Below, one piece after another: positions 10,653-51,962 of a stretch of 64,000 bases of DNA (positions are counted from its first letter, which is position 1; every line of letters begins with the position of its first letter). The stretch comes from a bacterium (GTDB lineage Bacteria > Latescibacterota > Latescibacteria > Latescibacterales > Latescibacteraceae). Under the pieces are notes generated by a model. The model searched no databases. It worked only from the letters and a program-made list of their open reading frames with translations, and was not told the DNA's origin. The stretch is taken from the NCBI GenBank assembly GCA_021372535.1, contig JAJFUH010000112.1, positions 1,034 through 65,033 of the forward strand. The letters run 5' to 3'. Both the position numbers and the translations under genes were made by a program.

Positions 10653-10779
10653 CCGGAGTAATTCCGGTGGATGGGCAACAACAGGAGGTTGCCCCAACGT
10701 ACGCGAACGATCATTTCGTCATGAATAATATTCTTTGTGATTTTGTGCCGTCGTGGTGAATTATTTTCATGAATAACCA
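10653..10779 (+). repeat. Leader unit A: hairpins followed by one copy of the conserved intergenic element
   Basis: The first hairpin is CCGGAgtaatTCCGG (10653-10667). The second is GGGCAAC, loop aacaggag, GTTGCCC (10673-10694). The element atttcgtcatgaataatattcTTTGTGatTTTGTGccgtcgTGGTgAAttATTTTCATGAATAAcCA then runs 10713-10779. Confidence 0.6.
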
Positions 10780-10936
10780 TCATGACCATATATGATCACA
10801 TCGAAGGATGAAAACGTAATTTCAGATATAACATATTATTACATGAATTATCTTTCTCCGTGTCTCCTTGGTGAAATTTGTTATGATATTTTCAGATAAA
10901 TCCGGGGCAATGACTGTTCGTGCATGTTTTCTAAAT

Positions 10937-11068
10937 GTTGGGGCAACCCCCCGTGGTTGCCCACTGTAAGTAATCCCCGGGGATTACCCCGGTATAAAAT
11001 ATTTCGTCATGTATACTATTCTTTGTGTCTTTGTGACTTCTTGGTTAAATATTTTCATAAATGATCCA
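10937..11068 (+). repeat. Leader unit B: hairpin, an 18-nt perfect palindrome, and a second copy of the conserved element. A tandem duplicate of unit A.
   Basis: The hairpin is GGGCAACC, loop ccccgt, GGTTGCCC (10941-10962). The palindrome gtaatccccggggattac is at 10970-10987. The element atttcgtcatgtatactattcTTTGTGtcTTTGTGacttctTGGTtAAatATTTTCAtaaATGAtCCA runs 11001-11068. Confidence 0.6.
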
Positions 11069-11090
11069 TACCAGCAAGGAGGTAATTATA

Positions 11091-12230
11091 ATGTCCGAAC
11101 ATACATCGTTCCACAGTATCTGCCGGTGGACATTCAATCCGGGAAAGGGAGGCTTTGTTCCCGCAGACATGCGGCCAGAATGGGCTTCTGACAAATTCGG
11201 CACGGTGGACATGATTCGCCTTGTCAAAGGCAGAATAAAGCCGCGGCTTCCGGAGTATATCGGGCTCGGCCTGGAGGTTCATTACGACAACGAGATCAAC
11301 GAAAACACCGTGAAGGAAATTTCCGACGCCCTCGTGGATACGGGTATGTACCTTGCCATGATCACACCCGGCGCCCACGGCCACTGGGGATACGGCGGTA
11401 TTGCCTCGCTCGACCCGAAAGAACGGTCGACCGCCGAGGAATTCGGGCAGAGAACGGTAGATCTCGCTTACGGAGTCCTGAAAAAGGCATGGCACCCCGA
11501 GGCGGGTAAAGCGCCCTCGCTCATTCTCTGGAACGGCTCGTTCGGGTATGATTTAGCCACCATCGGCATCCGGTCCATGTACCGTAATCTCAAGGAGAGC
11601 GTAGCGAAACTCTGCGCCTACGAAGCCCGTAAAGGCGGGGAACTGTACATCGGATTCGAGCCCAAACCGAATGAGGGACATCCGGCCATGCTCATTCCCA
11701 CCGTGGCGAGCGCACTCGTTTTCTGGAATCGGCTTGCGGTTGAATATGGCGTCTCCACGGCGAAAAAGGGAGTCAACAAGGAATTCGGTCACTCGGAGAT
11801 GATCGGCCTCGATCATGTGTACGATACGGTCGAGGAGCTCGACAACAATGCGATGGTTCACATGCACCTCAACAGCCAGGGGTATAACGACGGCATCATT
11901 CTCGGCGGACCGGGGAAATTCGACATCGATCACGGCGCCCGTGTGAACGGCATGAATATCGCCATAGCGGGTCTCATACAGGAAGCGGGATTCAACCGCT
12001 GGAAAGGCCATGACATGCAGACACGCGCTTATGACAACACGGAGCAGGGGATCGACCGTGTCATCAGGAGTGTCCTGAGCTGGGAGGCATGCGAACAGAC
12101 TGCCCGTAATCTTGATACGACCGGTCTGCTCCGTTTTCTTTCACAGCGCGAAACCGCGAAAGCCGAGGATATGATGAGAGCCGCCCTTGTCGATGCGCAG
12201 AAATTCTTCGATGAGATGTATGGAGGATAA
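11091..12230 (+). CDS. Xylose-isomerase-like TIM-barrel sugar isomerase (divergent XylA/RhaI-type)
   Basis: FEPKPNEGHP matches the XylA FEPKP motif. ILWNGSFGY corresponds to XylA WGGREG. The start at 11091 has an AAGGAGG RBS. The ORF track start at 11061 lies inside the repeat element. The FGGY kinase is adjacent. Confidence 0.6.
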   Translation: MSEHTSFHSICRWTFNPGKGGFVPADMRPEWASDKFGTVDMIRLVKGRIKPRLPEYIGLGLEVHYDNEINENTVKEISDALVDTGMYLAMITPGAHGHWGYGGIASLDPKERSTAEEFGQRTVDLAYGVLKKAWHPEAGKAPSLILWNGSFGYDLATIGIRSMYRNLKESVAKLCAYEARKGGELYIGFEPKPNEGHPAMLIPTVASALVFWNRLAVEYGVSTAKKGVNKEFGHSEMIGLDHVYDTVEELDNNAMVHMHLNSQGYNDGIILGGPGKFDIDHGARVNGMNIAIAGLIQEAGFNRWKGHDMQTRAYDNTEQGIDRVIRSVLSWEACEQTARNLDTTGLLRFLSQRETAKAEDMMRAALVDAQKFFDEMYGG

Positions 12231-12360
12231 TCCGACAGTTACGTTGGAAAAATTTAAATCGACCGCGGATTTACACGGATTGGGCGGATTTTAAGGGATT
12301 TGTTTTTATTATAACTTTTTTAATATTAACGATTGATAATTGGTATAGTTAATATAAATA

Positions 12361-12421
12361 ATGTGTTATGTCTATTTGTGCCTTTGTGTCTTTGTGGTAA
12401 AATATTTTCATGAATAATCCA
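12361..12421 (+). repeat. Third copy (C) of the conserved intergenic element
   Basis: atgtgttatgtctaTTTGTGccTTTGTGtcTTTGTGgtaAAatATTTTCATGAATAAtCCA. A terminator hairpin follows about 35 nt downstream. Confidence 0.6.
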
Positions 12422-12452
12422 GATTAAATACATAAAAAATCCTTTATATATC

Positions 12453-12491
12453 AAAAAAAGGCGCAACCGGTATTTCGTGGCTGCGCCTTTT
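12453..12491. terminator. Bidirectional rho-independent terminator. It serves glnA on the minus strand, and possibly a short plus-strand transcript.
   Basis: AAAAAAA, then GGCGCAaCC, loop ggtatttcgt, GGcTGCGCC, then TTTT. Confidence 0.6.
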
Positions 12492-12514
12492 CATTTCATG
12501 GTACGTTATTATTC

Positions 12515-13933
12515 TTATAGATCGTAGTACATGGCAAATTCCCACGGATGGGGACGGAGCCGCAGGGCATTGACCTCGTGTTCCATCTTGTACCATATCC
12601 ACGTTTTGATGACATCCTCGGTAAATACATCGCCTTTGAGCAGGAACTCGTAATCGTTTTCGAGCTCTTTCAGCGCCTCTTCGAGCGATCCGGGCATGAC
12701 CGGCACACCGACAAGCTCTTCCGGCGAAAGGTCATAGATATCCTTGTCGAGTGGGTCTCCGGGATCGATCCTGTTCTGGATGCCGTCGAGACCGGCCATG
12801 AGGAGCGCCGAAAAGGCGAGATAGGGATTGCAGCTGCAGTCGGGATACCTGATCTCGGCGCGTTTCGCTTTCGGGCTCATCGAATACATGGGGAACCTTA
12901 TCGAGGCCGAACGGTTGCGCTGTGAATAGGCGAGGTTCACCGGCGCTTCGAAGCCCGGCACGAGCCTCCGGTACGAATTGGTCGTCGGGTTGGTGATACC
13001 CGCAAGCGCCCGTGAATGTTTGAGAATGCCGCCGACAAAATACATCGCCATCTCGCTCATGCCGGCATAACCGGAGCCAGCGAACAGCGGCGTGGAACCC
13101 TTCCAGAGCGACAGGTGGGTATGCATACCCGTCCCGTTGTCACCGAATATCGGTTTGGGCATGAATGTGAGCGTTTTGCCGTTTCTGTGCGCGACATTTT
13201 TCAGTATATACTTGTAAAGATTGGTGCTGTCGCCCATACGGACGAGGCTGTCGAAGCGGAGGTCGATTTCGCCCTGGCCGCCGGTCGCAACCTCGTGGTG
13301 CTGGGCTTCGACCTCGAGACCGCATGCGGTAAGAACCTGCACCATCTCCTCGCGGAGGTCCTGCTGAGAGTCGGTCGGCGGAACGGGGAAGTAGCCTTCC
13401 TTGTACCGCGGCTTGTAGCCGAGGTTGGGGGATTCCTCACGGCCGGTGTTCCAGTGTCCCTCGATGCTGTCCACATAGTAATATCCGGCATGGGAATTCT
13501 GGTCGAAACGGATATCGTCGAAAATGAAAAACTCAAGCTCCGGGCCGACAAAAGCGGTGTCTGCAATACCGGTGGACTTGAGATACAGCTCCGCCTTTTT
13601 TGCGACATTCCTCGGGCACCGTGTGTAACGCTCACGGGTGATGGGATCGACAATATCACAGATCATGCTGATGGTTTTATATTTCGTAAAAGGATCGATG
13701 AAGACAGTTGTCGGGTCCGGCACAACGAGCATATCGGATTCATTGATCGACCGCCATCCGCGTATGGAAGAACCATCGAAGCCGAAGCCGTTCTCGAACG
13801 AATCGAGATCGAGCTGTTTGACCGGCACCGAAAAGTGCTGCCACATTCCCGGAAAATCCATGAATTTGAGGTCAACGGAAAGAACGTTCTCTTTTTTTAC
13901 CATATCGAGAACATCATGGGGAGTATGACTCAT
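12515..13933 (-). CDS. glnA: Glutamine synthetase type I
   Basis: Near-colinear with E. coli GlnA: FDGSSI, NESDM, GPEPEFF-like ([11 protein letters not shown]), HHEVATGGQ, KPxFGDNGSGMH, [29 protein letters not shown], and the adenylylation-site block DIYDLSPEE. Length is 472 aa. Confidence 0.92.
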
Positions 13934-14269
13934 TATTGCCTCCTGAAAATTACGGTGAATTTTATTTTTTCTTTGCTGAACAGTACCAAGAGAAAGCTAT
14001 TACGGTGCCAAAAGCGTAAATAATGCTTAATAATTTGATAATATTATACTTATGCTGATATATATACAAACGGGAAAAAGTGTGTTTTGTTCAAATAATG
14101 CAATTGATGTTCAATTTCTGATCATTATCATGACACCCTCATTGACACACAGGTGTAATTCTTTTATATTACATACTTAATTAATTTTACACGCATATCA
14201 GATGGCTGTTCAGGGAATCCCTTTTGAAACCACTCATATACCAAGTGCAAGACAGGAGAAATTACGGTC

Positions 14270-14935
14270 ATGTTACGGAAACATAAAAAACTGACGAAAA
14301 AAGAACTCAAGCAGGATCCGCTCGTGATATTTACCGCACAGTTCCTCGATTATATCCAGGGAGAATGGATGAAAATCGGGGGTACAATTCTTGCTGTTTT
14401 ACTTATTATATTTGTTTCGATGTTTATTGTCAAAGGGAAACATGCATCCGAGAACAAGGCCTATGATGCGGCATTGATCGCGCTCCAGACCAATGCTCCC
14501 GAAGCTCCCGATCTTTTGAAAACCGTTGTTGAAAAGCATGGCGGTTCCCAGAGCGCGGCAATGGCATTGATTCAACTGGGCAACATGTATTTTCAGAAGA
14601 AGGATTACGACCAGGCAGAAAAATATTTTACACGGTATATCGATAAATTTTCAGGTGATGTTCTTACCGATTTTAATGCATATAACGGGCTGGGGTCTGT
14701 TCTTGAAGAGAAAAACGAGCCGGCCAAGGCAGCCGCGATATATGAGAAATTTATTTCAAAACATGCTAACAGCCCGTTCACATCCATGATGTGTATTAAT
14801 ACCGCCAAAGCTTTCTGGCTTGCCGGTAATAAAGAACAGGCGAAAACATATTTTTTAAAGGTTGTGGATAATCCTTACGATTCAAATGAAAAGCAGGAAG
14901 CTCAATACTATCTTGAAACCTTGCAGATTCAATGA
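14270..14935 (+). CDS. Membrane-anchored TPR-like protein (YfgM-like architecture)
   Basis: A short cytoplasmic N-terminus, a single TM (IGGTILAVLLIIFVSMFIV), then a TPR-like helical domain. The stop overlaps the start of the radical-SAM gene. Confidence 0.45.
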   Translation: MLRKHKKLTKKELKQDPLVIFTAQFLDYIQGEWMKIGGTILAVLLIIFVSMFIVKGKHASENKAYDAALIALQTNAPEAPDLLKTVVEKHGGSQSAAMALIQLGNMYFQKKDYDQAEKYFTRYIDKFSGDVLTDFNAYNGLGSVLEEKNEPAKAAAIYEKFISKHANSPFTSMMCINTAKAFWLAGNKEQAKTYFLKVVDNPYDSNEKQEAQYYLETLQIQ

Positions 14936-15867
14936 TTAAAGGCTGTGTAATGAATCCGGGATATGTTGATTTATCGGAGCAGGGTATACTTGATAAAAGA
15001 GTCAGCATCCTTGCCGAATATTACAGAGAATGCACGCTGTGTCCTCACATGTGCAAAGCAAACCGAATCAGGAGTAACAAAGGGGTATGCCGGTCCGGGA
15101 GCCATGCCGTCGTCGCCAGCCACAACACGCATAACGGTGAGGAACCGCCCATTAGCGGATATGCAGGTTCGGGAACGATTTTTTTCTCAGGTTGCAGCGG
15201 ACGGTGCCTTTTCTGCCAGAATTATCCCATCAGCCAGCTAAATACCGGAACCCCCGTGAGCGATAAGCGTTTGGCATTCATGATGCTCGATCTCCAGAAG
15301 CGGGGATGCCACAATATCAATCTGGTAACGCCGACACATTTTCTTCCATCCATTGTCCATGCGATTTCAATTGCGGTAAAATCGGGATTGCGGCTCCCGA
15401 TTGTATATAATACAAGCGGATATGAGCGTGTTGAGATTCTGGAACTCCTGAACGGTATCGTCGATATCTATCTTCCGGATTGCAAATATGCCGATGATAA
15501 TGCCGCATCAGTTTTATCCGGTTTCGATGACTATGTCGCCCACAATCGATCGGCGCTCAAAGAAATGTTCAGACAGGTGGGGAATCTTCGCATTGTCAAC
15601 GGCATAGCTACCAAAGGCCTGTTAGTCCGTCACCTGATTCTCCCCGACAACCTGTCGGGCACTGAAACAGTGCTGAAATTTCTTGCCCGGGAAATATCGC
15701 GGAATCTGTATGTCAGCCTTATGGATCAGTATTTTCCCGCATACCGTGCGACGAATCATGCTGTTTTATCACGGCGTATCAATACCGAGGAATATAACGA
15801 GTCACTGGAATTCTTTACTGCATGCGGTCTGCATAACGGCTGGATACAGGAGCATCTGATTAATTGA
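14932..15867 (+). CDS. Radical SAM enzyme, PflX-like (COG1313-type, a homolog of PFL activase)
   Basis: The CSGRCLFCQN CxxxCxxC radical-SAM cluster is present. An additional N-terminal Cys cluster reads CTLCPHMC..GVC. It overlaps the upstream gene by 4 nt. Confidence 0.55.
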   Translation: MIKGCVMNPGYVDLSEQGILDKRVSILAEYYRECTLCPHMCKANRIRSNKGVCRSGSHAVVASHNTHNGEEPPISGYAGSGTIFFSGCSGRCLFCQNYPISQLNTGTPVSDKRLAFMMLDLQKRGCHNINLVTPTHFLPSIVHAISIAVKSGLRLPIVYNTSGYERVEILELLNGIVDIYLPDCKYADDNAASVLSGFDDYVAHNRSALKEMFRQVGNLRIVNGIATKGLLVRHLILPDNLSGTETVLKFLAREISRNLYVSLMDQYFPAYRATNHAVLSRRINTEEYNESLEFFTACGLHNGWIQEHLIN

Positions 15868-16017
15868 GATTTTTTTCAATATTTATATAGAAAACATCGT
15901 TCGTATTGTATATACTTTATACGGAGGCAACAAGGAGGCGATTGAAACACATATTTAAAAATTTATAATCGGTATTTCACATATAATTTTTTGTTTTTTT
16001 AATTTAAGGAGGCGTAC

Positions 16018-16533
16018 ATGGCAGTTGAACAAAAACCACAATTGACTGAAGAAGAAAAAATCGCAAAGAAAGCCAGATTATTTCGTATAATCTCGAATAT
16101 TCTTATCGGTGTAGCAGTAGTTGTTATTACCATTTTTATCATTTTTGCCGTCGGCACAAAAAAGAACATTAATACCCAGACAGCCATGGATACGCAGGAA
16201 CTCAGAAGCAAGCTAAAACAAATTGTAGCGCTCGAGAAAAAATATCATGAAGAACATGGCGAATATGTAAAAATCAACTTTCTTCAATTGAGTAAAGACC
16301 TTCCGATTTTCGATCCAAACCCGATGGGTAACTTCAGATATAAATTCGATCCTGAAACGGCGACTGCAACCGGTATGGAAAAAGACGCATCGAGTGATGT
16401 CAATGGTGATAGCGATGGGAAAGACGGGTTGACTCTCAACGTCAAATGGGAACCGGGCAAGACAGATGGAAGCGATTTCTTCTGGACCGATGAGGATATT
16501 GCGGATTTCCAAAAACGCGCTGCGGAAAAATGA
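16018..16533 (+). CDS. Hypothetical protein with a single N-terminal TM anchor
   Basis: 171 aa with an AAGGAGG RBS. It has a TM helix (ILIGVAVVVITIFIIFAV) and an acidic C-terminus. No family was recognised. Confidence 0.5.
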   Translation: MAVEQKPQLTEEEKIAKKARLFRIISNILIGVAVVVITIFIIFAVGTKKNINTQTAMDTQELRSKLKQIVALEKKYHEEHGEYVKINFLQLSKDLPIFDPNPMGNFRYKFDPETATATGMEKDASSDVNGDSDGKDGLTLNVKWEPGKTDGSDFFWTDEDIADFQKRAAEK

Positions 16534-16558
16534 TGACGATCATCTGTGTGTGATTGGC

Positions 16559-16598
16559 AACGGGGTTTTTTCTCAAGTAAAGAAAAACCCCGTTTTTT
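16559..16598 (+). terminator. Rho-independent terminator
   Basis: AACGGGGTTTTT, loop tctcaagtaaag, AAAAACCCCGTT, then TTTTTT. Confidence 0.7.
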
Positions 16599-16706
16599 AT
16601 TGTTTTTTATCATCAGTCGTTCCTGAAAATTAATGTAATAAATTGTTAATAAAGTAATTGTAATATATTTATTAGGTAGTAAACGCCATGTACATGGAGT
16701 CATTTC

Positions 16707-17288
16707 ATGAACTCATCAGTTCGCATCCATGTATTTCTTTCGCTTTTACTGCTCGCGTTTCTGCTTGCCTGCAGTAATAGTGAAGACAGCCCGATCGGAC
16801 CCGGTGAAGTAAATGTCATTTCCGGCATGACGTTTGTTTCGATCCCTAGCGGGACTTTCCGGATGGGGGATGAGGATGGCTATCTTTCGGATGAGTGTCG
16901 CCCTGTCCATACCGTGACGGTATCGTCATTCGAGATGAGTGTATATGAAGTGACGAACGCCCAGTATGCGTCATACCTGAATGAGGCGCTGTCGTCGGGC
17001 ATTATCAAGGTATCGGAGAATGTTGTCTTGGGCAAAGGTGGTGAGTACGATGATCAGCCGTATATTGACATGTATTATCCGTACGATGCGGACAATACAT
17101 GTTGGATCGGTTATAGTTCCGGCGTATTCGGTGTGTCGAGTGGTAAAGAGAACTGGCCGGTAGTGAACGTGACGTGGTATGGAGCGAAAGCTTTTGCACA
17201 GTACTTAGGTTTTGTGTGTGTCCTGCCCGGGAGTATCGAGGCATCTAATACCCGGTGCAACAGATTTCGTGTAGGGCGGTACTCCTGA
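16707..17288 (+). CDS. Lipoprotein with an FGE-sulfatase (SUMF1-like) domain that appears C-terminally truncated. Possible pseudogene.
   Basis: It has a lipobox (LLACSNS) and the blocks FRMGDEDG..RPVHTVTVSSFEMSVYEVTNAQYASYL and NVTWYGAKAFAQYLG. The ORF ends where the paralogous domain in the STK (47686-50190) continues with RLPTEAEWEYAARGG. The downstream frame has no FGE similarity. Confidence 0.5.
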   Translation: MNSSVRIHVFLSLLLLAFLLACSNSEDSPIGPGEVNVISGMTFVSIPSGTFRMGDEDGYLSDECRPVHTVTVSSFEMSVYEVTNAQYASYLNEALSSGIIKVSENVVLGKGGEYDDQPYIDMYYPYDADNTCWIGYSSGVFGVSSGKENWPVVNVTWYGAKAFAQYLGFVCVLPGSIEASNTRCNRFRVGRYS

Positions 17289-17478
17289 AGGTTGATCTGG
17301 CTGCTAATGCTAAAGACTTTTTCAGGGACAACTCATTAAGATGCAGGACAGATCATTTGCTGAAAGACTTTTATGAGAGAACTGCTGAAATATCTCATAA
17401 TCGCCCTGATAGTCGGGGGAGCGGTTCCGTTGATATTATCATATCTGACCAGAAAACCGCCATCGAAAGGGAAGTAAG

Positions 17479-19296: not shown

Positions 19297-21271
19297 AAGT
19301 GCCGCCGCAATGTTTACGCATAATATATCTTATGTAAACTTATATATCTGCCGTTAGTATGTATTCCCCGTTTATCGAGCTGTTATGGACACATCCTGTC
19401 CCTGGGCCGTGGAAACGATATTTTCCCTCATATATGTCTTATCCCTCATAGTCATTCAACTGTTCTTTCTATTTGGAGACAAAAAACTTAAACCATCATA
19501 AATAAAGATACCATCGAAAAGTATCGGAATCAAGATTATGATGCTGTACTTTTTTAAAAATGATTCACATAATCATCATCACTTTATCCTCCACCGATTA
19601 CTTCTCAATATCCTTCCGTGTCACGGCATAATACTCACCATCCGGACATTTGTGATTTAAAAGACTTACATTTTGAATGATAACGATAAAAATTAAATGA
19701 TAACATCGTCTCTCATTGACAAAAAATCATTCTCTCTTTATAAGCAAAATAATGTATTTCTAAAAAATCAATAGCGTCATCATAGAGATTTACGGAAATA
19801 ATACGGTTATTATTTTCAATTAGTTTTAAATATCTCTATCAAGAAATTCAACTTCTAATGTGAATGATCTTATGAATTCTGTAACTATCTGAATCCCATA
19901 TGATTAAGAATACTCTGCATTATATTGTACAGTCTCAGACGCTACTATCCAGATTTCCGTCATATGACGTCTTATTTATTGACTTTTTTAAACATAACAT
20001 CGGACAAAATGAATAAACCTCCCCGTACGCTATTGATCTAAGATCGTCATATAATTGACTTATTTGCGTCAGTTAAGCATATATTAAAAGTATTCAATTT
20101 CCAATAGTGTCGTGTTTATGTCGTACGATATTGAAAAAAGTAGCTGAGATACTATTTACATAAATCTCATAAATAACAACAATATTACATTTATTCTATT
20201 GAAAATCACTCAGTCTTAATAATAGCGACATGTCGTAATAAATGCAACAATATATGACGATTGTCGAGTAGTGATAAAACGCCATGTCCCTTTGGTGATA
20301 CAGGGCAATTATCCTCATATTCATGTAAGATACAGAGATCACTTATACCAATATCGTAAGCATATTGATCCGATTATAGCGTCATACGACGCCAACAAAT
20401 ATTACGGATGATTCAAGAGTAATTTTATTTGTAAATGTAAATATATCACCGGTAACGTCGCCTTTGAATACAACCCATTGAATAACACCTGTACCGGATC
20501 GCACTTCAACGAAAATGATTTTACCGCTTTAACAGACATTCGTAACCCTTTCTTTTATACCGACAGCTTCGCCGTCACTTGATGTAATATCTCGAATGCA
20601 ACCATGCGGTATTTGAGAACGATAGTGTTGTCAGACAACCTGTGTTATCGTAAAGTATTATTGTTACCATATTAACGATTAATATATTGTCAGAAAAGGA
20701 GTTATTGCAATGACAGGGAAATTCCTCGCATGTATGAAACAAAATTATAATTCATTATATATATTATAAACAACATACTAATATATCGTGCGTCATATTG
20801 TATCATATATTATATAGCACTAAAATAAATATGATATATAATATAATCATACTACAACAATATTATTCCAAAATTACGAATGTGAAAAACCTTTAGTAAC
20901 GACACGAACTTTCGCTTTAACGCTTCATTGTAACGCATCCGAAAAAAACATAATCAAAATATATTTGTCACTTTATTTATTCTGATATACTTAATGCTCT
21001 ATTTTATAAAACGACATGTCGCAATATCGGCAAAATTACGCTTATGATTTTTCAGTATCAGGGGCAGCGTTCGTCTCTTACGTTTCACCGATACGAAATA
21101 TAAAATAATCCGTTTATTAAGTGGGGCATGGCGAAGCCGAGGGGGATCAATCATATCAGTTGATTTAACTGGATATCCTGATAAAAATTCAAGCTTTTCT
21201 GACGAATAAAAAAAGGAGCGATAAAAAATCTTCGCTCCCCTGCTCCATTATACTGATGTCATACAGTTTAT
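19297..21271. other. ORF-free AT-rich island of about 2 kb
   Basis: No ORF of 60 codons or more in any frame, although the track accepts GTG starts. GC is far below that of the flanking genes. It contains the palindromes cgacatgtcg (twice), cgtcatatgacg and tcgtacga. Confidence 0.5.
21212..21245 (-). terminator. Rho-independent terminator of pnp
   Basis: On the minus strand: GGAGCGA, loop agatttttt, ATCGCTCC, then TTTTTT, 25 nt after the pnp stop. Confidence 0.6.
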
Positions 21272-23362: not shown

Positions 23363-23387
23363 GAATAAATAAACTCCGATTTTTAAA

Positions 23388-25663: not shown

Positions 25664-25678
25664 AGGGAACGTCTGCTT

Positions 25679-25960: not shown

Positions 25961-25974
25961 GGAGCATTATTCCC

Positions 25975-39110: not shown

Positions 39111-39116
39111 CAGGCA

Positions 39117-40892: not shown

Positions 40893-41635
40893 ACAAGCTC
40901 CTCGACAAGATTCCGGAAATCCTGCGCGCCGATACTGTCAGGATCGTATTCCATGATACTCTGACCCATTGCGGAGCTTTCACCTATTTTGACGTTCCGC
41001 CGTATCTTCGTTTTTGCAAGCGTGTCACCGAAAAAGGAGTGAAGCTGTTTCACCATTTCGCCCGCAAGCACCGTATTGGAATACATGGTCGGTATCACAC
41101 GGCCGATTTGAAGCCGTGCATTGTAATTATCACGAACCGCATCGATGGTTTCGAGCAGCTTGTTGGTTCCGATGACGCTCAGGTGTTCGCAGGCCACTGT
41201 TATATAGACCTCGTCGCTTGCCACAAGGCCGTTCACCGTGAGCGCGCCGAGGGAAGGCGGGCAATCGATGAGAATGTGGTTAAACCGTTCGGTCACGGGT
41301 TCAAGCGCTTTTTTCAGTCGGCGTTCATATCCGATAGCCGCAAAAATCTCGCGTTCGATGGAAGCGAGCAGGATATTGGATGGCACGAGCCAAACATTTT
41401 TGTGAATAGGCGCGATAACATCCTCGATCACCGCGGTCCCTCTGATGACATCATATACGGTCCGCTCGAACGAATCGGGATCGCTTCCGCACCATGATGT
41501 CAGGTTACCCTGGGGATCGAGGTCTATAAGGAGAACAGAACGGCCTTTCCGGGCAAGCTCGAATCCTATATTAACCGTACAGGTGGTTTTACCTACTCCA
41601 CCTTTCTGGTTGGCAAATACTGCAATTCTTTTCAT
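40889..41635 (-). CDS. ParA/MinD-family ATPase (ParC-like candidate)
   Basis: The deviant Walker A is ANQKGGVGKTTCTVN. DLDPQGN follows. The start was chosen at MKRIAVF. It is immediately downstream of pilC. Confidence 0.75.
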   Translation of the reverse strand: MKRIAVFANQKGGVGKTTCTVNIGFELARKGRSVLLIDLDPQGNLTSWCGSDPDSFERTVYDVIRGTAVIEDVIAPIHKNVWLVPSNILLASIEREIFAAIGYERRLKKALEPVTERFNHILIDCPPSLGALTVNGLVASDEVYITVACEHLSVIGTNKLLETIDAVRDNYNARLQIGRVIPTMYSNTVLAGEMVKQLHSFFGDTLAKTKIRRNVKIGESSAMGQSIMEYDPDSIGAQDFRNLVEELV

Positions 41636-41790
41636 GCAACCTCCGCGCCGGTATCTGTCATCCGGCAATATCGCACAATATATCGGACAAATGAAAGCCG
41701 TCAGATATGCTGAGCGTTCATAACGACATTACCCACATGTATGGGATGAAAACAGTATGAATGGCCGGCGTCCGAACAGCAATTTCATCA

Positions 41791-42999: not shown

Positions 43000-43051
43000 T
43001 TCGGTTTATCCCGCCCGGTGAGTGTTGTCGTTCCGATCCGATTTTCCCTGT

Positions 43052-44725: not shown

Positions 44726-45021
44726 AGGAAATATTCACCCCCTGATTCAGAAAAAATCCGGTTTCCGTTATCTTGAACCTGTATTGATAAAATATATAAA
44801 AAACGTCAAAAAGCAAAAAAATAATATTTTATGAGTTTTAATAGTTTTTTTTATAACGCACAGTCAGGAAACGTAATAATTCATTATTTAACAATTTGAT
44901 AGCACTATCAATAATACGATGTGCCGTTCATGCCAGAATTTATTTATCCGTGAAACAGTTCGGCATATTCAACAGATACATGCTTTATTCCCCGGTTCGC
45001 ACGGATAATCCTGACTGATTA

Positions 45022-45900
45022 TCAGACAAGTACCTCAAACAGTTTATGCCTTCCGGTGAATCCTTTTAAATCGAAAAAGCCGATACACCGGGTTTTTATC
45101 TGGGTATCGTTCGAAATCATTTTTTGCACCGTTTCCGCGATGAAGATACGGTCCGATCTTGGCATGTCGTCCTTTTTAATACCCATAACCGTTTGATGCA
45201 TATCGTCGATTTTAACCGATTCGACGCGAAAAGCCATATCGACAGCCATACCCCGGCGGTCACCATCGGGAAGCTTGAAAGTCTCGCCGTAATTGATACC
45301 GATCCGGACACGGATTCCGGCGGATGATTTCTGTTCCTTCAGGTCGGTTAAAAAGCCGATAGCCAGATTGACCGCGGGTTTAACCTTGCTGAAAACGAGC
45401 ATGAAACCGTCACCGGTATTTTTTATGAATTCCGCGGGATTTTCCTTGAGATTTTTTTTCAGACAGAGCAGCAGAGTATTTTTCACTTTACTGGCGATAC
45501 GGTCACCGACAAGCTGGGCGATATTCGAGGAACCGACCATATCGATAACGACGATTGCTTCGGGTGTTGTTTCCATCGCGGAATCGGGTTCGGCAAACCG
45601 CTCTTCGGTGCGCCGCGACACTTTCAGAAACGTATGCCCGAGTCTGAAAATATCTCCCGGATTGACCACTACGGGAGCGGTGACCGGATCGCCAAGAAGA
45701 AACGTGCCGTTCTTGCTTTTACTGTCCTGAAGGGTAATCACCCCGTCTTCAGCTACCTCCAGCACGGCGTGGGTACCCGATATATATTTATCATCGGGTA
45801 AAACAATATTTGATTCGGAGGAACGGCCGATGCTGTATGTGCCGGGTATCAGGGTTGTCCGTGTACCCTCTTTTTCGCCATTCAGAATAAATAAATACAT
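45022..45900 (-). CDS. FHA-domain protein fused to a class III adenylyl/guanylyl cyclase catalytic domain
   Basis: The FHA block is YSIGRSSESNIVLPDDKYISGTHAVLEV...NGTFL. The cyclase blocks are VVIDMVGSS, NTGDGFMLVF and RVRIGINYGE. Confidence 0.7.
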   Translation of the reverse strand: MYLFILNGEKEGTRTTLIPGTYSIGRSSESNIVLPDDKYISGTHAVLEVAEDGVITLQDSKSKNGTFLLGDPVTAPVVVNPGDIFRLGHTFLKVSRRTEERFAEPDSAMETTPEAIVVIDMVGSSNIAQLVGDRIASKVKNTLLLCLKKNLKENPAEFIKNTGDGFMLVFSKVKPAVNLAIGFLTDLKEQKSSAGIRVRIGINYGETFKLPDGDRRGMAVDMAFRVESVKIDDMHQTVMGIKKDDMPRSDRIFIAETVQKMISNDTQIKTRCIGFFDLKGFTGRHKLFEVLV

Positions 45901-46250
45901 GACTGCCTGTACCGTTTTTTAAGAAATTGACGTTAAAAAAGATATTTCAATATATCCGTTTATTTGTGAAATTGTCAACCGGTATGTGTTGTTAAAAGAA
46001 CGCCGAAACCACCTTTTCACGAGAGCGATGTAAAAAATGCTTTGATTTATTGCCATTACGGGCATGTATAACGTCGCTTCAGGATGTCGGCTGACAGCAT
46101 TACGGAATATTTAAGGGATTTATTATCAGGATTTTCAGACTGTTTCTAATATAAAGCATAAAGAAAAAGCTTGACAAGCATAAATATAAAAAATATAGTT
46201 CCATATGAAAAAGTACGCTAATAAATTCATTTATTTTTGGAGTAACCACT

Positions 46251-46793
46251 ATGGAAGAAGACTGGCGTATCACACTGAGTTGCCTTGAATCGCCCGATCC
46301 GTCATTTGTCGGAACCCAGAAAGTATTCACACAATCTCCAATCAACATCGGACGCGCCGAAAACAGCGATATGGTAATACCGGATCTGGCTGTGTCGCGA
46401 AACCACGCAATACTCAGGATCACGGCGGATTATACACGTGTTTTTATTACCGATATGAGCACCCATGGGACAGAAGTTTCCGGGAAAGTCGTTCCAAAAG
46501 GCAGGGGCAGCGGTTTCACCCTCGAGAATGGCGATACGATCAAGCTGGGAGAAACCGTGTTACAATACGAGTTGAAACTGAAAACGAGTGTTCAATCCAC
46601 CATGGTCGGTAAAATTGACCGGAGTTTCCTTGATAAGCCCCCCGAGCCGGTTGTTGCCGAAAAAATCGAAGAACCGGTAATACCGTTAAAAACCGTCGCA
46701 CCCGCTGCCGCCCAAAAGAATTTTAACCCGATTTATCTCGGCATAATCATTATCAGCCTCGCGCTTATCATATACCTGTTAATAAAAGGCTGA
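46251..46793 (+). CDS. FHA-domain protein with a C-terminal TM anchor
   Basis: The FHA block is INIGRAENSDMVIPDLAVSRNHAILRI...HGTEV. The C-terminal hydrophobic helix is IYLGIIIISLALIIYLLI. Confidence 0.65.
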   Translation: MEEDWRITLSCLESPDPSFVGTQKVFTQSPINIGRAENSDMVIPDLAVSRNHAILRITADYTRVFITDMSTHGTEVSGKVVPKGRGSGFTLENGDTIKLGETVLQYELKLKTSVQSTMVGKIDRSFLDKPPEPVVAEKIEEPVIPLKTVAPAAAQKNFNPIYLGIIIISLALIIYLLIKG

Positions 46794-46839
46794 TATTCAC
46801 GAAATTGAGCACGATTTCCTTTTCAGGAGAAACCATAGA

Positions 46840-47685
46840 ATGGTTACCATGACAACCGCGGGTTTGACAGACACCGGCATGTCCAGAACAAATAATGAAG
46901 ATACGTATTTAACTGATAAATCATTGCTTATCGTGGCGGATGGTATGGGCGGAGCCGCGGCGGGTGAAGTTGCAAGCCAGCTTGCGGTAGAAGAGATATC
47001 AAAAAAACTCAGGGGAACAGTGTATGTTTCGGACGACCAGATACGGAAAGCATTTAACGACGCCATCTGGAATGCCGATGCAACAATAAAAGAACGTACC
47101 CGTAAAAATCCCGATCTCAGAGGGATGGGAACGACCATAATGGCCGCTCTCCATCTCGGCGACCGTCTTCTTATAGGATTTGTGGGTGACTCACGCGCGT
47201 ATATCGTCACTCAGAAAAATCAGGATTCTCCTGCCTCGTCACGGCCCGATGTTCCGAAAGTCGATACAAATGCCGCAACCGCAATCTTACAGAAAATCAC
47301 CGATGACTTTCAGCCTTCATCTAAGGAAAAAGGAAGCATCCAGCGTATAACGAACGATCATTCTGTTGTCATGGAACTTGTCAATTCCGGTGTCATACAG
47401 GAAGATGATATCCGCACCCATCCCATGAGAAACCGAATCACACGGTGTGTGGGGAATCTGACCGATAAGGGTCCCGACTTTGTCTGGCATACCATAGCCA
47501 ATGACGATACGCTTATTTTGTGTTCGGACGGATTATGGGAAATGATTCACGAAGACCTGATTTTCGCCATCGTGAAATCGTCGAAAACTGTCGAAGAAAT
47601 GTGCAAGCGGCTTATCAATGCGGCAAATGATGCCGGCGGAGCCGATAACATCACCGTCATCACGGCTCAATTCAAAAAGCAGTAA
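46840..47685 (+). CDS. PP2C-family Ser/Thr protein phosphatase
   Basis: The PP2C motifs NEDTYL, VADGMGG and a GGADNITVI tail are present. Confidence 0.8.
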   Translation: MVTMTTAGLTDTGMSRTNNEDTYLTDKSLLIVADGMGGAAAGEVASQLAVEEISKKLRGTVYVSDDQIRKAFNDAIWNADATIKERTRKNPDLRGMGTTIMAALHLGDRLLIGFVGDSRAYIVTQKNQDSPASSRPDVPKVDTNAATAILQKITDDFQPSSKEKGSIQRITNDHSVVMELVNSGVIQEDDIRTHPMRNRITRCVGNLTDKGPDFVWHTIANDDTLILCSDGLWEMIHEDLIFAIVKSSKTVEEMCKRLINAANDAGGADNITVITAQFKKQ

Positions 47686-50190
47686 TCATCGCTGTTTCCC
47701 ACCCCGCGCCAGACGGAATCCCGTGTGCGGTCCCGTGTAATCGGGAGGATGCGGTCCCCGTATCGAGTTCCTGATAAGCTTGGCATTCGAATTCCATCCG
47801 CCTCCCCGAACAACACGCCCTGGTCCCTGCGAAGCTCCCGCGGGATTCACCACAAGCCCGGATTGATACGGTCCGAACCAGTCGGCGCACCATTCCCACA
47901 CATTTCCCGCCATATCGTTCAGACCGAACTGATTGGGAGGAAATGTGCCTGCTCTGGTCAGTGATGTCCGCCAGCCTGTCCCGTTATTCCAGTCGTTCCC
48001 GAAATTGGCGCGTTTTTCGGGAGATTCGTCGCCCCATGGGTACAGTTTACCCTCCAGCCCGCCGCGCGCGGCATATTCCCATTCGGCCTCGGTCGGGAGA
48101 CGGGCGCCGGCCCATTGTGCGAATGCGGCCGCATCGGACCACGATACGAATACAACGGGACGGTCGGGACGAGCCTGCTGGCTTCCCCATGATGGAGGCT
48201 CCGCGTGACCGGTTGCCTTGAGAAATGCCGCATACTGCACCACGGTTATCTCATCACGGGACATTTCGAAAGCCGATACGGTTACCCTGTGTACCGGCCG
48301 GACCTGCAGCTGCTCCTCGATATCGCCCTGGGAATCACCCATCATGAACGTACCGGCAGGAATCCGTATCCAGACAAGCGCGACCGTTTCCTTCGGTTTT
48401 GTTTCCTGTTTTTCGGGCTTGATTTCCGGTTTCACGAGAACCGCAACGGGCTGATCCGTCGCTTGATTCCTGGTTTTTGCTGGCGGTGCAGTGGTTTTTT
48501 GAGGAGCCTTATCTTCCGGTTTTTCCACGGGTTTTTTCTCATCGGTGCGCACAGGGGATGACGATGAAGCCGGGCGTGATTCAGCCGGAGATTTTTCCTC
48601 GGTCCGGGTCGATAAAGTTTCCGGTTTTTTCTCCGGGGTTTTTTGTGCCGGTGAAGCGGAAACGGGCGGCTGTTGCTGCGTTTTTACCGTTTCCTGCTGT
48701 TTTTCCGCGGAAGGCAACATGCGTTCCGGTTTTTTTTCGCTGTCCTTTTTTACCTGAGGCGAACTATCCGATGACGGTTTCGTCTGTTCCCCGGCGGGAG
48801 TTTCACCGGTTTTTTGCAGTGGTTCCGTCTGAGATTTGGTACCGCCCGAAGATGCCGTTACCGGCGGCGATGATTTCTTCCCCTGCGGAATAACATAGTA
48901 GAGCGCCCCCAGAACAACTCCGATCATGCCCAGCGACAGGAGAGCATACATCAGCATGGAAGCGCGTTTCTTCTCTTTCTGTGGTTTTCCTGCCGCTTTC
49001 CCCGCGCTGGATTGAACCGGTCCCGTGAGGGTATCTCCAAGCTTTCCGGAAGCCTCGGGGGAATCCTTGCCCGGCTTTTCCACTGTCTTTCCGGCGGATA
49101 CCGCTTCAGCCGGAAGTATTACCGTTTCGGCAAGAGGTGTTTTATCCTCTTCCGGGACAGGTTGTCCGTATACGGGTTGAGGAGAAGCGATGGTTTCGGA
49201 CGACTCGGACTGTTCCGGCTGGTTTTCGAGGATTTGCTCATGGAGCGCCTTGCCAAGCTCGGCTGCCGATTGATACCTGTCTGCAGGACTCTTGGCAATA
49301 GCTTTCATGATAATAGCGGAAAGTTCTTTCGGTACTTCCCTGTTGATGGTTTCCGGCAGCGGCGGGAGCACGTTCACCTGATTGTAGAGAAGCGCGGTAT
49401 GATCGAGACCGAAGAACGGCGATTTCCCGACCGCCATCTGGTACAGGACGCATCCCAGACTGTAGATATCCGACCTGCCGTCAACCTCTTCCCCCTTTAT
49501 CTGCTCGGGGCTCATGTACATGGGAGTGCCGATGAACATGCCCGTCTGCGAAAGCTTCGCGCTGCGCTGGGCTTTTGCTATCCCGAAATCGACGACGATC
49601 GGCTGCCGTTTTTTATTGACGATGATATTTTCGGGTTTGATATCACGGTGGATCACTCCCTTCTCGTGGGCATGCTGGAGCGCGAAACTGACCATGACCG
49701 CAAGACGGGCAAGCACCCGGGGTTTGAGCGCCCCGCTCTTTTTGATGATCTGGTCGAGGGGTACTCCCTCGATAAAAGCCATCGAATAATAGTAAAATCC
49801 GCCGCTTGTATCGACATCGTGAATCTGTATAATGTTCGGATGGAGAAGCTTGGCTGCAATTTTTGCTTCACGCAGGAAACGTTTGGCAAAGTTTTCATCG
49901 TATGACATCTCCTGCGGGAGCAGTTTAAGTGCGACAAGGCGTTCGAGACGGCTGTCCTCGGCAAGAAAAACAATTGCCATGCCTCCCCTGCCTAGTTCAC
50001 GGATAATTCTGTACCGGTGCGAGACCGCGGCCTTGAACCGCTCGATGTAATCCCCTTCCCCGTTCTGTGAGGTTTTTTCCTGAGCCCCCGACGGTTTTCC
50101 GGGAGTGATCTCCCTGGGGAGTTTTTCGCCGCAGTTGGTACAAAACTCTGCTTCATCCCTGTTTTCTGTTCCGCATTTATCGCAAAACAT
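47686..50190 (-). CDS. Hanks-type Ser/Thr protein kinase with an N-terminal zinc ribbon, a TM segment and a C-terminal FGE-sulfatase domain
   Basis: The zinc ribbon is CDKCGTENRDEAEFCTNCG. The kinase subdomains are GRGGMAIV..ALK, HRDIKPENI, DFGIA and SPEQ. A Pro/Lys/Thr-rich linker precedes the TM segment (LMYALLSLGMIGVVLGALYYVI). The FGE blocks are RLPTEAEWEYAARGG and GNVWEW. Confidence 0.85.
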   Translation of the reverse strand: MFCDKCGTENRDEAEFCTNCGEKLPREITPGKPSGAQEKTSQNGEGDYIERFKAAVSHRYRIIRELGRGGMAIVFLAEDSRLERLVALKLLPQEMSYDENFAKRFLREAKIAAKLLHPNIIQIHDVDTSGGFYYYSMAFIEGVPLDQIIKKSGALKPRVLARLAVMVSFALQHAHEKGVIHRDIKPENIIVNKKRQPIVVDFGIAKAQRSAKLSQTGMFIGTPMYMSPEQIKGEEVDGRSDIYSLGCVLYQMAVGKSPFFGLDHTALLYNQVNVLPPLPETINREVPKELSAIIMKAIAKSPADRYQSAAELGKALHEQILENQPEQSESSETIASPQPVYGQPVPEEDKTPLAETVILPAEAVSAGKTVEKPGKDSPEASGKLGDTLTGPVQSSAGKAAGKPQKEKKRASMLMYALLSLGMIGVVLGALYYVIPQGKKSSPPVTASSGGTKSQTEPLQKTGETPAGEQTKPSSDSSPQVKKDSEKKPERMLPSAEKQQETVKTQQQPPVSASPAQKTPEKKPETLSTRTEEKSPAESRPASSSSPVRTDEKKPVEKPEDKAPQKTTAPPAKTRNQATDQPVAVLVKPEIKPEKQETKPKETVALVWIRIPAGTFMMGDSQGDIEEQLQVRPVHRVTVSAFEMSRDEITVVQYAAFLKATGHAEPPSWGSQQARPDRPVVFVSWSDAAAFAQWAGARLPTEAEWEYAARGGLEGKLYPWGDESPEKRANFGNDWNNGTGWRTSLTRAGTFPPNQFGLNDMAGNVWEWCADWFGPYQSGLVVNPAGASQGPGRVVRGGGWNSNAKLIRNSIRGPHPPDYTGPHTGFRLARGGKQR

Positions 50191-50535
50191 ACGACCCCGC
50201 TATTTCAGGGAACAGTAGATTCGGATTATACATTTATTGAGAAAGATACAGGCTCTGAAAAAATATTGAATTATAAACCATCGATGTCAATGTTTTTCTT
50301 TCAAAAACTTGATACGTAAGTATTTTCAAGTCAGAAAGGGGTGCAATATTTTCCCAGTCATAACGGAATTTCAAATACAAATGGAATTATCATATGTATC
50401 ATAATCAATGTATCTTCTTGCTTAATAATGTGTTATAGATATACTTCAAATTTCTGTGCACCGTGGCAGGTTTTTTGCTTAATTTATTACTGACTTACTA
50501 TACTTCCATTATAACAGTACCAGCCGCGGGGAGTT

Positions 50536-51807
50536 TTGATTGTGTCAGTGTTTCGGGTTCTGACATATGTTTTGACTGTCATCGTCCTCTTGATACCTGC
50601 TGCCGTGAGCGCGCAGGATGACAGCGAATACGGCCGTATCCTTTCCATCACCGACAAAACGGTCAATGTAAGTTTTGCAAATAAAACCGTGGGTGTGGGT
50701 GAAGAAGTGGAATTCTGGCGGTTCACGAAAATTGTCGATCCGGTGACCGGCGATATCCGCGGCGGGAAAAAAACTATTGTCGCATATGGTGTTGTCGATG
50801 ATATCGGCGTCGGAAAAGTCCAGGTTACGGTAACCGGGATGGTGCTCAATGGCAGAATTGCCATGCTCGACAGGGTTCTTGCCACCGGCAAGGGGAAACA
50901 GATCGTACGGACGCAGAAAATCGGTACGATACAGGAGCTCAAGGATGACGGCGCGATAGTTATCGATCTCGGAACAGAAGACGAAATCAGCGAAGGCGAC
51001 GAATTTCTCATTCAGCGCACGGAAACGGTTGTCGATCCCGAGACGAAAGAGGTGACCGTAAAAAACCAGGTCGATGTGGGAAGAGGACGGGTTCAGACGG
51101 CGGATAAAAAGACAAGTGTCGCTTCCCTTGTCCAGTTATTACCGGGAATGGAGATTCAGAAAACAGATAATGTCGTCTTCGACAAGCTGAAAACAGAAGA
51201 TGAAATCCCACTGTCCGGGAGTCCCGTGACGATCGACAGCCTCCAGAAAGAAATCGTCGAATTACAGCGCGAGGTTACGGTTTTGAAAGCCGCTGTGGAC
51301 AGTCTCGGCCAGGAACACCTGATCTTCAAGGATGAAATAGAAACGGTGCTTTCGCAGCTCATGGCGGGCGATATAAAAGGTACGCGGATTATCCTCAAAA
51401 ACGACGAGCCGATAACACGCGCCGATTCGCCGGAAGTGTTCGCGTCGTATAAAAGAGCCCTCGATACCTGTCTCGACCGTAAATTCAGGCAATCCATAGA
51501 ACTGTTTCATGCATTCATGAAACAATATCCCGCATCGAAACTGACCGAGAACTGCCGTTACTGGATAGCCCAGTCGTATTTCAGCATGGGAAATTTCGAG
51601 ACGGCAATCGAAGGATTCAGGGATGTCATCGACGAAAAGCGGTACACGCACAAGGATGACGATGCGGCAATAATGATCGCGATAACCTATTACAAGCTCG
51701 GGAAACGTGACGAGGCATTGCAGGCTTTCAATAACTTCGTCAAACTTTACCCGTCGAGCGAGTACCGGAAAATAGTCGAAAACTGGATTAAAAAATTATC
51801 CGCATAA
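50536..51807 (+). CDS. Secreted protein with a C-terminal CpoB/YbgF-like TPR domain
   Basis: It has a signal peptide and a coiled-coil segment (EIVELQREVTVLKAAVDSL). The C-terminus has repeats of the YbgF-type YPxSxxxxxAxYWxA pattern. Confidence 0.5.
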   Translation: MIVSVFRVLTYVLTVIVLLIPAAVSAQDDSEYGRILSITDKTVNVSFANKTVGVGEEVEFWRFTKIVDPVTGDIRGGKKTIVAYGVVDDIGVGKVQVTVTGMVLNGRIAMLDRVLATGKGKQIVRTQKIGTIQELKDDGAIVIDLGTEDEISEGDEFLIQRTETVVDPETKEVTVKNQVDVGRGRVQTADKKTSVASLVQLLPGMEIQKTDNVVFDKLKTEDEIPLSGSPVTIDSLQKEIVELQREVTVLKAAVDSLGQEHLIFKDEIETVLSQLMAGDIKGTRIILKNDEPITRADSPEVFASYKRALDTCLDRKFRQSIELFHAFMKQYPASKLTENCRYWIAQSYFSMGNFETAIEGFRDVIDEKRYTHKDDDAAIMIAITYYKLGKRDEALQAFNNFVKLYPSSEYRKIVENWIKKLSA

Positions 51808-51894
51808 GCGGAACAAGATTTAATTGAACACGGATTTTTAGCGGATTTTCATATCTTTTAAATACGAACAATTACGCGTTACTAAATATAGTAT

Positions 51895-51962
51895 AAATAA
51901 TTTTTTATATCTATTTGTGTCTTGGTATCTCAGTGGTGAAATATTTTTATTCATAATCCAGG
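51895..51962 (+). repeat. Fourth copy (D) of the conserved intergenic element, immediately upstream of the TPR lipoprotein gene
   Basis: tataaataattttttatatctaTTTGTGtcTTgGTatctcagTGGTgAAatATTTTtATtcATAAtCCA. The ATG follows 7 nt later. Confidence 0.55.

Follow-up and report, generated by a model that had tools for sequence, protein, structure and literature searches.

A short element built on tandem TTTGTG hexamers recurs between genes in a 64,000-nt stretch of a Latescibacteraceae metagenome-assembled genome (MAG) (contig JAJFUH010000112.1; the whole stretch is hereafter the window). The feature is real and non-random. An earlier reading made from the letters alone (the sequence-only reading) had offered a promoter plus operator, an RNA motif of the 5′ untranslated region (UTR) and a small dispersed repeat as candidates, and the last of these is the best supported. 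Its fuller form is put forward here with evenly poised confidence: a dispersed intergenic repeat resembling repetitive extragenic palindromes (REP), enterobacterial repetitive intergenic consensus sequences (ERIC), miniature inverted-repeat transposable elements (MITEs) and short tandemly repeated repetitive sequences (STRR), with arrays that would be read by a putative protein. The dispersed mini-repeat is favoured because the element appears as a lineage-specific addition to compact gene junctions, because it seems to belong to a patchy family that crosses phyla and because its orientation to genes is mixed, and these are the strongest results of the analysis.

Non-coding modules at gene junctions

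The sequence-only reading had described four copies of about 65 nt, all on the plus strand, and each was found where it had been placed; as delimited here they are copy A (10713..10800), copy B (11001..11068), copy C (12354..12421, with three perfect TTTGTG units) and copy D (51888..51962). Copy A consists of the box ATTTCGTCATGAATAATATTC, the array TTTGTGatTTTGTGccgtcGTGG and the tail TGAATTATTTTCATGAATAAC, followed by a degenerate inverted right arm at 10778-10800 (nhmmer E 1.9e-14). The total is five rather than four, as a degenerate plus-strand copy, A′ (10853..10905), was recognised by nhmmer profiles and by direct reading; it reads CCGTGTCTCCTTGGTGAAAT, then an 8-nt insertion that splits the tail, then ATATTTTCAGATAAATCC. 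The 27-nt right-hand core, with at most 3 mismatches, matches B, C and D, where 100 dinucleotide-preserving shuffles give an expectation of 0, and copy A escapes this match solely through a 1-nt deletion. An nhmmer profile built from the four copies scores each of them at E 2e-16 to 2e-14, the sole additional match above noise in the window being A′ at E 0.03. Tandem Repeats Finder reports period 8 at 11020-11039 in copy B and at 12375-12396 in copy C.

The copies follow a common grammar of two or three in-register 8-bp YTTnGTGn units, a closing GTGGT and an A/T-rich tail (AAWTATTTT), with no A in the array strand. The core TTTGTG-N2-TTTGTG-N6-8 proposed earlier is therefore sound in its direct repeats but not in its details: the spacer before TGGT is invariably 6 nt, and the second TTTGTG is missing from copy D, where TTGGTA stands instead. 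Likewise, the element of about 65 nt is real but the repeated unit reaches well past that length. Copies A, C and D are the right-hand part of 150-250-bp non-coding modules, which occupy entire intergenic spacers and have in common a left block, ACAAGATTTAAnnGAACaCGGATTTT, in which CGGATTT-type units occur two to four times. This block lies 100-180 nt upstream of the array and starts at or just past the stop codon of the upstream gene. In module A (10555..10595, plus strand; ACAAGATTTAACAGAACACGGATTTT..., recognised as repeat family D5 and in the module alignment) it holds the last codons and the stop codon of an FGGY kinase gene. In module C (12248..12302, plus strand; three or four CGGATTT-type units; repeat family D4, 78% to 7003-7057) it begins 18 nt past the stop codon of a xylose-isomerase-like gene, and in module D (51813..51850, plus strand; repeat family D5, 92% to 10555-10580) it begins 6 nt past the stop codon of a YfiO/TPR-like gene. 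Copies B and A′ consist of the right part only and are clustered with A.

Of the five copies, just two lie directly next to a gene. Copy B is followed by an AGGAGG Shine-Dalgarno sequence (11079-11084) and by the ATG at 11091 of the xylose-isomerase-like TIM-barrel gene (Pfam AP_endonuc_2), and copy D stands 5′ of a TPR lipoprotein gene (ATG 51970), whose AGGA Shine-Dalgarno sequence overlaps the end of the element. The distances from copy end to start codon, 22 nt for B and 7 nt for D, agree with the sequence-only reading. Downstream of copy C there is no plus-strand gene; it faces the glnA terminator hairpin (~12460-12487) and the 3′ end of glnA (assigned by Pfam) on the opposite strand. Altogether the five copies sit in 3 of the ~26 intergenic gaps longer than 60 nt in the window.

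The same junctions were compared with those of relatives at 55-80% protein identity, which are not strains. The xylose-isomerase-like protein has a match at 100%; its next relatives stand at no more than 80%, the best-named being Candidatus Latescibacteria, and the contig of that MAG (L078) keeps synteny with the window over at least seven genes. Between the FGGY kinase and the xylose-isomerase-like gene, the window has 525 nt, against 6 nt in L078 and L107, 68 nt in L079 and an 11-nt overlap in L108. The junction between the xylose-isomerase-like gene and glnA measures 284 nt in the window and 125 nt in L078, and that between the YfiO-like and TPR genes 162 nt in the window against 22 nt in L096 and 21 nt in L098, the spacer of each of the latter two being merely a Shine-Dalgarno sequence. 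Hence, at conserved sites, three window junctions are expanded relative to six related contigs, and neither nhmmer profile finds any copy in ~70 kb of these relatives. Because the relatives' junctions are much shorter and hold no copy, the modules are, as far as such comparison reaches, lineage-specific additions to otherwise compact gene junctions. The addition may also have altered a gene: in module A an 11-nt stretch, ACAAGATTTAA, specifies the final residues of the kinase together with its stop codon, and it is identical to a non-coding stretch in module D, and the C-terminus of the kinase in L078 differs from that of the window kinase, which suggests that the added module rewrote the end of the FGGY kinase gene.

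A fourth module (6995..7152, plus strand) carries the left block and the middle part with no TTTGTG array; it ends ...AAGAATTCCAG, and the closing ...TCCAG is present. Its left block, in which ACGCGGATTT is repeated four times with period 10 (7018-7056), lies upstream of a minus-strand PIG-L family gene. In addition, two related hairpins of the form GGGCAAC...GTTGCCC (10672-10698 and 10937-10963; inverted repeat I4, 27 nt, 89% complementary) bracket copies A and A′.

An octamer-array family in several phyla

By its sequence, the core of the window copies is a local subfamily of a wider octamer-array family that is patchy across phyla. A metagenome scan with TTGTG..TT.GT and TGGT.AAWTATTTT fixed and seven bases left free returned 16 loci, in 13 of which the free bases read G(T/C)CT(T/C)nG and thereby complete a third in-register unit. 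A looser expression with the tail unconstrained, run over the same metagenome contigs, gave further copies, and 10 of the 12 copies from this tail-free scan again continue with GTGGT and an A/T-rich stretch containing a T-run. The column counts show a near-invariant C at the start of each unit, where either C or T was permitted, and no constraint on the fourth base; the CTT and GTG cores are not judgeable from these counts, most such positions having been fixed by the retrieval expression. A profile built from 22 non-window copies recovers exactly A to D (E 1e-7 to 7e-5) and A′ (E 0.033) and nothing else in the 64 kb, with E-values that are optimistic, since 13 of the 22 copies were retrieved with a window-derived pattern. 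The window copies show the traits by which the family was delimited: at least two in-register YTTnGTGn units, a closing GTGG(T), an A/T-rich tail and an intergenic position.

Outside the window, the arrays were found in a Rubinisphaera sp. MAG of the Planctomycetota (L086, identified by a 100% protein match), with two inverted pairs in 20 kb, in a Melioribacter sp. MAG of the Ignavibacteriota (L033) and in an unclassified MAG (L065), with four arrays in 1 kb. Other planctomycete contigs gave no copies in 53 kb, viral contigs no matches, and plasmids and phages chance-level matches only. No record of the family was found in Rfam or in the searchable literature, and literature searches on Latescibacteria promoters, MITEs in Ignavibacteria and GxxExxY proteins yielded nothing helpful. 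A small PD-(D/E)XK gene (PDDEXK_3, "GxxExxY") adjoins the inverted array pair of the Melioribacter MAG (L033, 6412-6801, minus strand), the tail of one array overlapping its last codons; an association of the arrays with such genes was considered and set aside, as it was seen at this locus only.

A scan of a genome collection with the right-hand core gave 77 loci, among which the sole true full copy is that of L003 (contig JAQTSP010000235.1, from a MAG labelled Eubacteriales); L033 and L065 also carry arrays and the rest are chance matches. The L003 copy matches C at 90.6% identity over 53 nt and A at 82.7% over 81 nt, a stretch that takes in the right arm of A up to TCACAnCGAAGGATGAAAA. An insertion sequence at 147-2014 of L003 lies 14 nt upstream of the array; it has 17-nt perfect terminal inverted repeats and encodes a 573-aa DDE transposase (DDE_Tnp_1_6 + DUF772), and its ends (TGACGGTCCGGCCAAAA) are unrelated to the element. 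The L003 MAG and the window MAG are probably related, as a second intergenic repeat (...ATCACTGTTTAATCGCCGAAGCAATAA...) is common to both, at 57886-57947 (minus strand) of the window and in L003, with 77% identity over 62 nt. Repeats of the ATCACTGTTTAATCGCCGAAGCAATAA type occur three times in L003 (3-31, 2217-2252 and 2301-2337), partly inverted.

In the wide family, arrays occur as back-to-back inverted pairs (L033, L065, L086, L087, L089, L090 and L091), as head-to-head pairs (L085 and window copy A) and as solo copies. Clear inverted arms of 27-28 nt are seen in the Rubinisphaera pairs, L085, L087, L089 and L091. The two Rubinisphaera pairs have common 28-nt arms with 63/64-nt spacing and interiors that do not align, and mismatches between arms fall at the free position and are not compensated. 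Because the interiors do not align and the mismatches go uncompensated, what is conserved is, on this evidence, the motif and not a hairpin. It is plausible that the CGGATTT left block of the window modules is a reversed arm of the same kind of array, so that the modules would be back-to-back pairs with unlike arms, because relatives L107 and L108 show other flavours of the octamer grammar. In L107 (6140-6190), four AATGGTG units with an 8-nt GTG/CAC-periodic flavour stand directly past the stop codon of the xylose-isomerase-like gene, and in L108 (1055-1215) a 160-nt mix of CACGGATT, CACAAAG, CACAGAG and CACGAAA units stands upstream of an AAA_15 ATPase gene.

The orientation of the arrays to genes is mixed in the wide family, as far as rough gene calls allow it to be counted: 11 copies point toward a gene start (at 58-700 nt) and 12 toward the stop codon of a convergent gene, 10 of the latter lying within 50 nt of it and 5 overlapping it. 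The pair of L086 sits between divergent gene starts, and that of L091 flanks a separate canonical terminator between convergent genes. Together with the lineage-specific additions in the window, this mixed orientation fits a small dispersed repeat.

In the mechanism proposed, the modules, which were gained at compact junctions, twice within what are operon junctions in the relatives, would be carried as co-transcribed spacer. A sequence-specific protein, either an enzyme of spreading or a host nucleic-acid-binding protein, may read the arrays, because their conservation is block-wise and motif-like: CTT and GTG are constant, the fourth base varies freely and the units stay in 8-bp register. 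At copies B and D, the A/T-rich end would now serve as a leader directly before the ribosome-binding site.

Alternative readings of the arrays

Several observations weigh against a dispersed repeat that spreads by insertion. The junction comparisons document a gain at the level of the lineage and not an insertion event with defined boundaries. No near-identical pair of a filled and an empty site was found; no target-site duplication flanks modules A, C and D when set against the junctions of relatives, which are too distant for base-level boundaries; and no terminal inverted repeat is definable for the window modules, the two ends of which are only loosely alike in the module alignment. In Rubinisphaera, a comparison of filled and empty strains gave nothing, all eight loci being the same sequence from a single strain and the length differences being runs of N; planctomycete homologues at greater distance lack synteny. 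The family has no linked transposase or recombinase. The copies diverge by 10-35% and yet retain identical blocks, and this, with the arms-only conservation in Rubinisphaera, looks like selection for a host function over recent transposition. The sequence-only reading had taken random orientation as the mark of a selfish mini-repeat, and the mixed orientation of the wide family answers to this, but all five window copies lie on the plus strand, which is the strand of their flanking genes. To these points are added the optimism of the E-values mentioned above and two promoter-like sites, namely TTGATA-18-AATAAT, a sigma-70-like sequence at 12333-12362 just upstream of the array of copy C, and TCGAAA-17-TATATT, which ends beside the right arm of one Rubinisphaera pair. 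It should be noted that a GenBank MAG contig, L100, contains six runs of N of 85-190 nt, which mimic insertions when its gene coordinates are compared with those of L099.

Such sites bring in the first alternative, a portable promoter-plus-operator cassette, which is possible but clearly less likely than the dispersed repeat. It would place a promoter just upstream of or within the module, and the TTTGTG array just downstream of this promoter would be the operator at which a repressor or activator recognises tandem 8-bp units. The xylose-isomerase-like and TPR genes would be expressed from B and D, and C would give rise to a short RNA or to antisense RNA against glnA. Block-wise conservation is what binding sites would show, and tandem units of 8 or 7 bp are bound in this way by ribbon-helix-helix repressors such as MetJ, ParG and omega. 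B and D end close before start codons (22 and 7 nt), the promoter-like site of C ends 10 nt before the array, with a terminator ~90 nt later, and the Rubinisphaera pair with TCGAAA-17-TATATT at its right arm has both arms facing divergent genes. However, a consensus scan (-35 TTGACA, -10 TATAAT, 16-18 bp apart) found no plus-strand site inside any copy, there is no plus-strand sigma-70-like site in 51780-51990, which covers module D, or near B, and the counts of promoter-like sites are within shuffle expectation. By hand alignment, the TTG triplets of the array stand 13-14 or 21 nt from TATTTT, and the variable base after TGGT sits where the critical A of a -10 hexamer would be. Moreover, no gene follows directly downstream of A, A′ or C, one in two copies of the wide family runs into the 3′ end of a convergent gene, often over its stop codon, and the genes served have no evident common function. 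The promoter-plus-operator candidate of the sequence-only reading is thus weakly supported: B and D do abut genes, but no copy has an internal sigma-70-like site and three of the five lack an adjoining gene.

Nor is the element the promoter consensus of the host, which is canonical TTGACA-N17-TATAnT. Such sites stand elsewhere in the window, as TTGACA-N17-TATATT before 14270, TTGACA-N17-TATAGT before 46251, TTGACC-N17-TATATT before 60042 and TTGACA-N18-TATATT before 45900 (minus strand). The sequence-only reading had allowed that the motif might be no more than a housekeeping promoter found before most genes; it occupies only 3 of the ~26 gaps, and other genes are preceded by canonical sites, so its view that conservation extends beyond a generic promoter is borne out. 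Its comparison of the TTTGTG repeats with response-regulator half-sites fares badly. OmpR/PhoB-type half-sites are direct repeats every 10-11 bp, one helical turn apart. The element resembles them in having direct hexamer repeats upstream of genes and differs in its period of 8 and its inconsistent orientation; a regulon of this type would show a fixed position and orientation, whereas only B and D abut genes and the wide family is divided 11 to 12.

Further signals were compared with the copies and rejected. A sigma-54 promoter (TGGCAC-N5-TTGC) would correspond to TGGTGA-AATAT-TTTC, which lacks the GC of the -12 element, and the base after TATTTT is unconserved in the wide family. Of promoters of the extracytoplasmic function (ECF) type, Bacteroidetes -33/-7 promoters, CRP sites, DnaA boxes, dif/Xer sites and Chi sites, none fits the sequence of all copies. 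An invertible promoter would need longer spacers than the 5-20 nt seen in several pairs. As for an integron attC site (RYYYAAC...GTTRRRY), GTTAAAT is present only in B and L003, A, C and D having GTGAAWT or GTAAAAT, and the left ends mismatch RYYYAAC.

Somewhat less likely again is an element that acts at the RNA level, in which the transcribed U/G-rich (C)UUnGUG strand would recruit a single-strand binder such as a cold-shock-domain protein, and the bound junction would stay unstructured and so support antitermination, translation or mRNA stability. The window copies are all sense to their flanking genes, and copy D, which lacks its own promoter, can be transcribed only together with the gene upstream of it. 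The absence of A from the array strand is consistent with this, as is the modal unit GTCTTTG, which is the optimal single-stranded DNA heptamer of CspB of B. subtilis, with the near-invariant C and T of the array at positions 3 and 4, which CspB strongly prefers (PMC1904285). The arrays of STRR heptamers in cyanobacterial operon junctions offer a parallel, with a proposed effect on transcript stability or translational coupling (PMC2670836). However, the match to CspB is a resemblance, and heptamer positions 2 and 6, where CspB prefers T, vary in the arrays. In the wide family, roughly one copy in two lies antisense to its nearest gene, and any transcript of an inverted pair carries both strands.

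The RNA-level reading also finds no conserved RNA structure and no Rfam family behind it. Nothing reaches the gathering score of Rfam in the window and 15 related loci, in which only chance-level matches at E up to 10 were seen. Copy A (10736-10800) can form an imperfect hairpin of ~26 bp (-22.5 kcal/mol, z -2.8), but B, C and D lack a partner arm, and their folds are no more stable than those of shuffles (z ~0). The consensus fold of the five aligned copies amounts to -1.6 kcal/mol with 7 pairs and a covariation term of +0.32, the power being low at n = 5. Hence the RNA motif of the 5′ UTR suggested by the sequence-only reading matches no Rfam family and yields no consensus fold, and the covariation check that it had proposed brought no covarying support from the five-copy alignment. 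A sub-threshold match to STnc40, a Salmonella small RNA, lies in the terminator region just past the stop codon of glnA (12454-12533, minus strand; 38 bits against a gathering score of 45, E 1.5e-4) and may be merely terminator-like.

A bolder version of a trans-acting partner can be drawn from these analogies and is rated improbable: the arrays would be loading sites for a widely conserved trans-acting protein, forming a portable cis device that would have reached several phyla and been retained for its modulation of transcription or translation at junctions. Its most concrete form would have cold-shock-domain proteins on the transcribed U/G-rich strand, in view of the agreement of GTCTTTG with the CspB optimum; the alternative would be a double-stranded DNA binder of the ribbon-helix-helix type.

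The least probable reading is a hairpin terminator, attenuator or insulator, in which the transcripts of inverted arrays would base-pair and the T-rich tail would supply the rest of an intrinsic terminator. It is very unlikely. Copy A forms its hairpin (z -2.8), and intergenic pairs in L087, L090, L091 and L033 are preceded by an A-run and followed by a T-run; against this, B, C and D lack a partner arm and show no fold, 4-5 bases separate GTGGT from the T-run, arm mismatches at variable positions are uncompensated, a separate canonical terminator lies between the two arrays of L091, the L086 pair sits between divergent gene starts and the organism uses ordinary GC-stem terminators elsewhere. 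In the window itself, no terminator-like site was found in 10500-12600, and the hairpin of copy A lacks a U-tract.

Relation to known repeats and significance

The dispersed repeat proposed here is likened to REP (with their bacterial interspersed mosaic elements, BIMEs), ERIC, MITEs and STRR by its possible mode of working. Membership of none is claimed, because a palindromic unit, GTAG, a target duplication and a linked transposase are all lacking. In enterobacteria, REP/BIME and ERIC, the latter also known as intergenic repeat units (IRU), are short intergenic non-coding repeats, often within operons and co-transcribed, and can be targeted by insertion sequences. They occur singly, as inverted pairs or in clusters, in either orientation. 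The element is similar in being intergenic only, in forming inverted pairs in the wide family and a tandem cluster in A/A′/B, and in the insertion sequence beside the L003 copy. A REP unit is an imperfect palindrome of 20-40 nt with a 5′ GTAG and a link to RAYT transposases, whereas the element is built from 8-bp direct repeats, is not palindromic, bears an A/T-rich tail, lacks GTAG and crosses phyla; no RAYT gene was seen, although no search aimed at such genes was made.

Similarly, the modules recall MITEs such as the Correia elements of Neisseria in being non-coding and 100-250 bp long, in the inverted ends of paired copies (28-nt arms in Rubinisphaera), in their insertion at gene ends or junctions and in a possible supply of regulatory signals. 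They differ in that no target-site duplication or related autonomous element was found, and in that the arms of the window modules are unlike each other (CACGGATT-type on the left, TTTGTG-type on the right). MITE copies are usually alike over their full length, whereas the interiors of the two Rubinisphaera copies differ.

The nearest described analogue is the STRR arrays in operon junctions. These too are tandem arrays of short units in intergenic and operon-junction DNA, with hairpins possible when inverted (PMC2670836). The STRR have 7-bp units of other sequences and belong to filamentous cyanobacteria, whereas the present arrays have 8-bp units, 2-5 per array, with a fixed GTGGT and A/T tail. 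Among protein-binding sites, the operators of ribbon-helix-helix proteins (met-boxes of MetJ, tetramer boxes of ParG and heptads of omega) consist of head-to-tail units every 7-8 bp, direct or inverted. To our knowledge, they are the only well-known class of DNA site with a 7-8-bp register. The element has no sequence resemblance to these operators, no cognate gene nearby and no tie to any single operon or regulon.

Small dispersed repeats between genes have been well documented in enterobacteria, Neisseria and cyanobacteria but hardly at all in uncultivated lineages such as the Latescibacteria-like host of the window. The same octamer grammar in Planctomycetota, Ignavibacteriota and the lineage of the window, combined with the free variation of the sequence enclosed by paired arrays, points to a possible specific protein partner, one that is mobile or else conserved very widely. 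Naming this partner would account for a recurrent intergenic feature of environmental genomes. In practice, such modules lengthen operon junctions, alter gene ends, as in the last codons of the kinase, and can mislead the prediction of promoters and operons in MAGs.

Other features of the window were recorded in passing. No tRNA and no Rfam hit was found in the whole window. Two long A/T-rich stretches lie at 19297-21271 (1975 nt, GC 0.32) and 58826-60041 (1216 nt, GC 0.29), neither with an open reading frame of at least 100 aa and the first with none of at least 60 aa. Around module D, a gene for a Ser/Thr kinase fused to an FGE-sulfatase domain (47686-50190, minus strand) is divergent from the YfiO-like and TPR lipoprotein genes (50536-53112, plus strand). 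This kinase-FGE-sulfatase/YfiO-like/TPR arrangement is retained in L096/L097, in which the TPR gene has 55% protein identity, and the YfiO-like/TPR pair is retained in L098.

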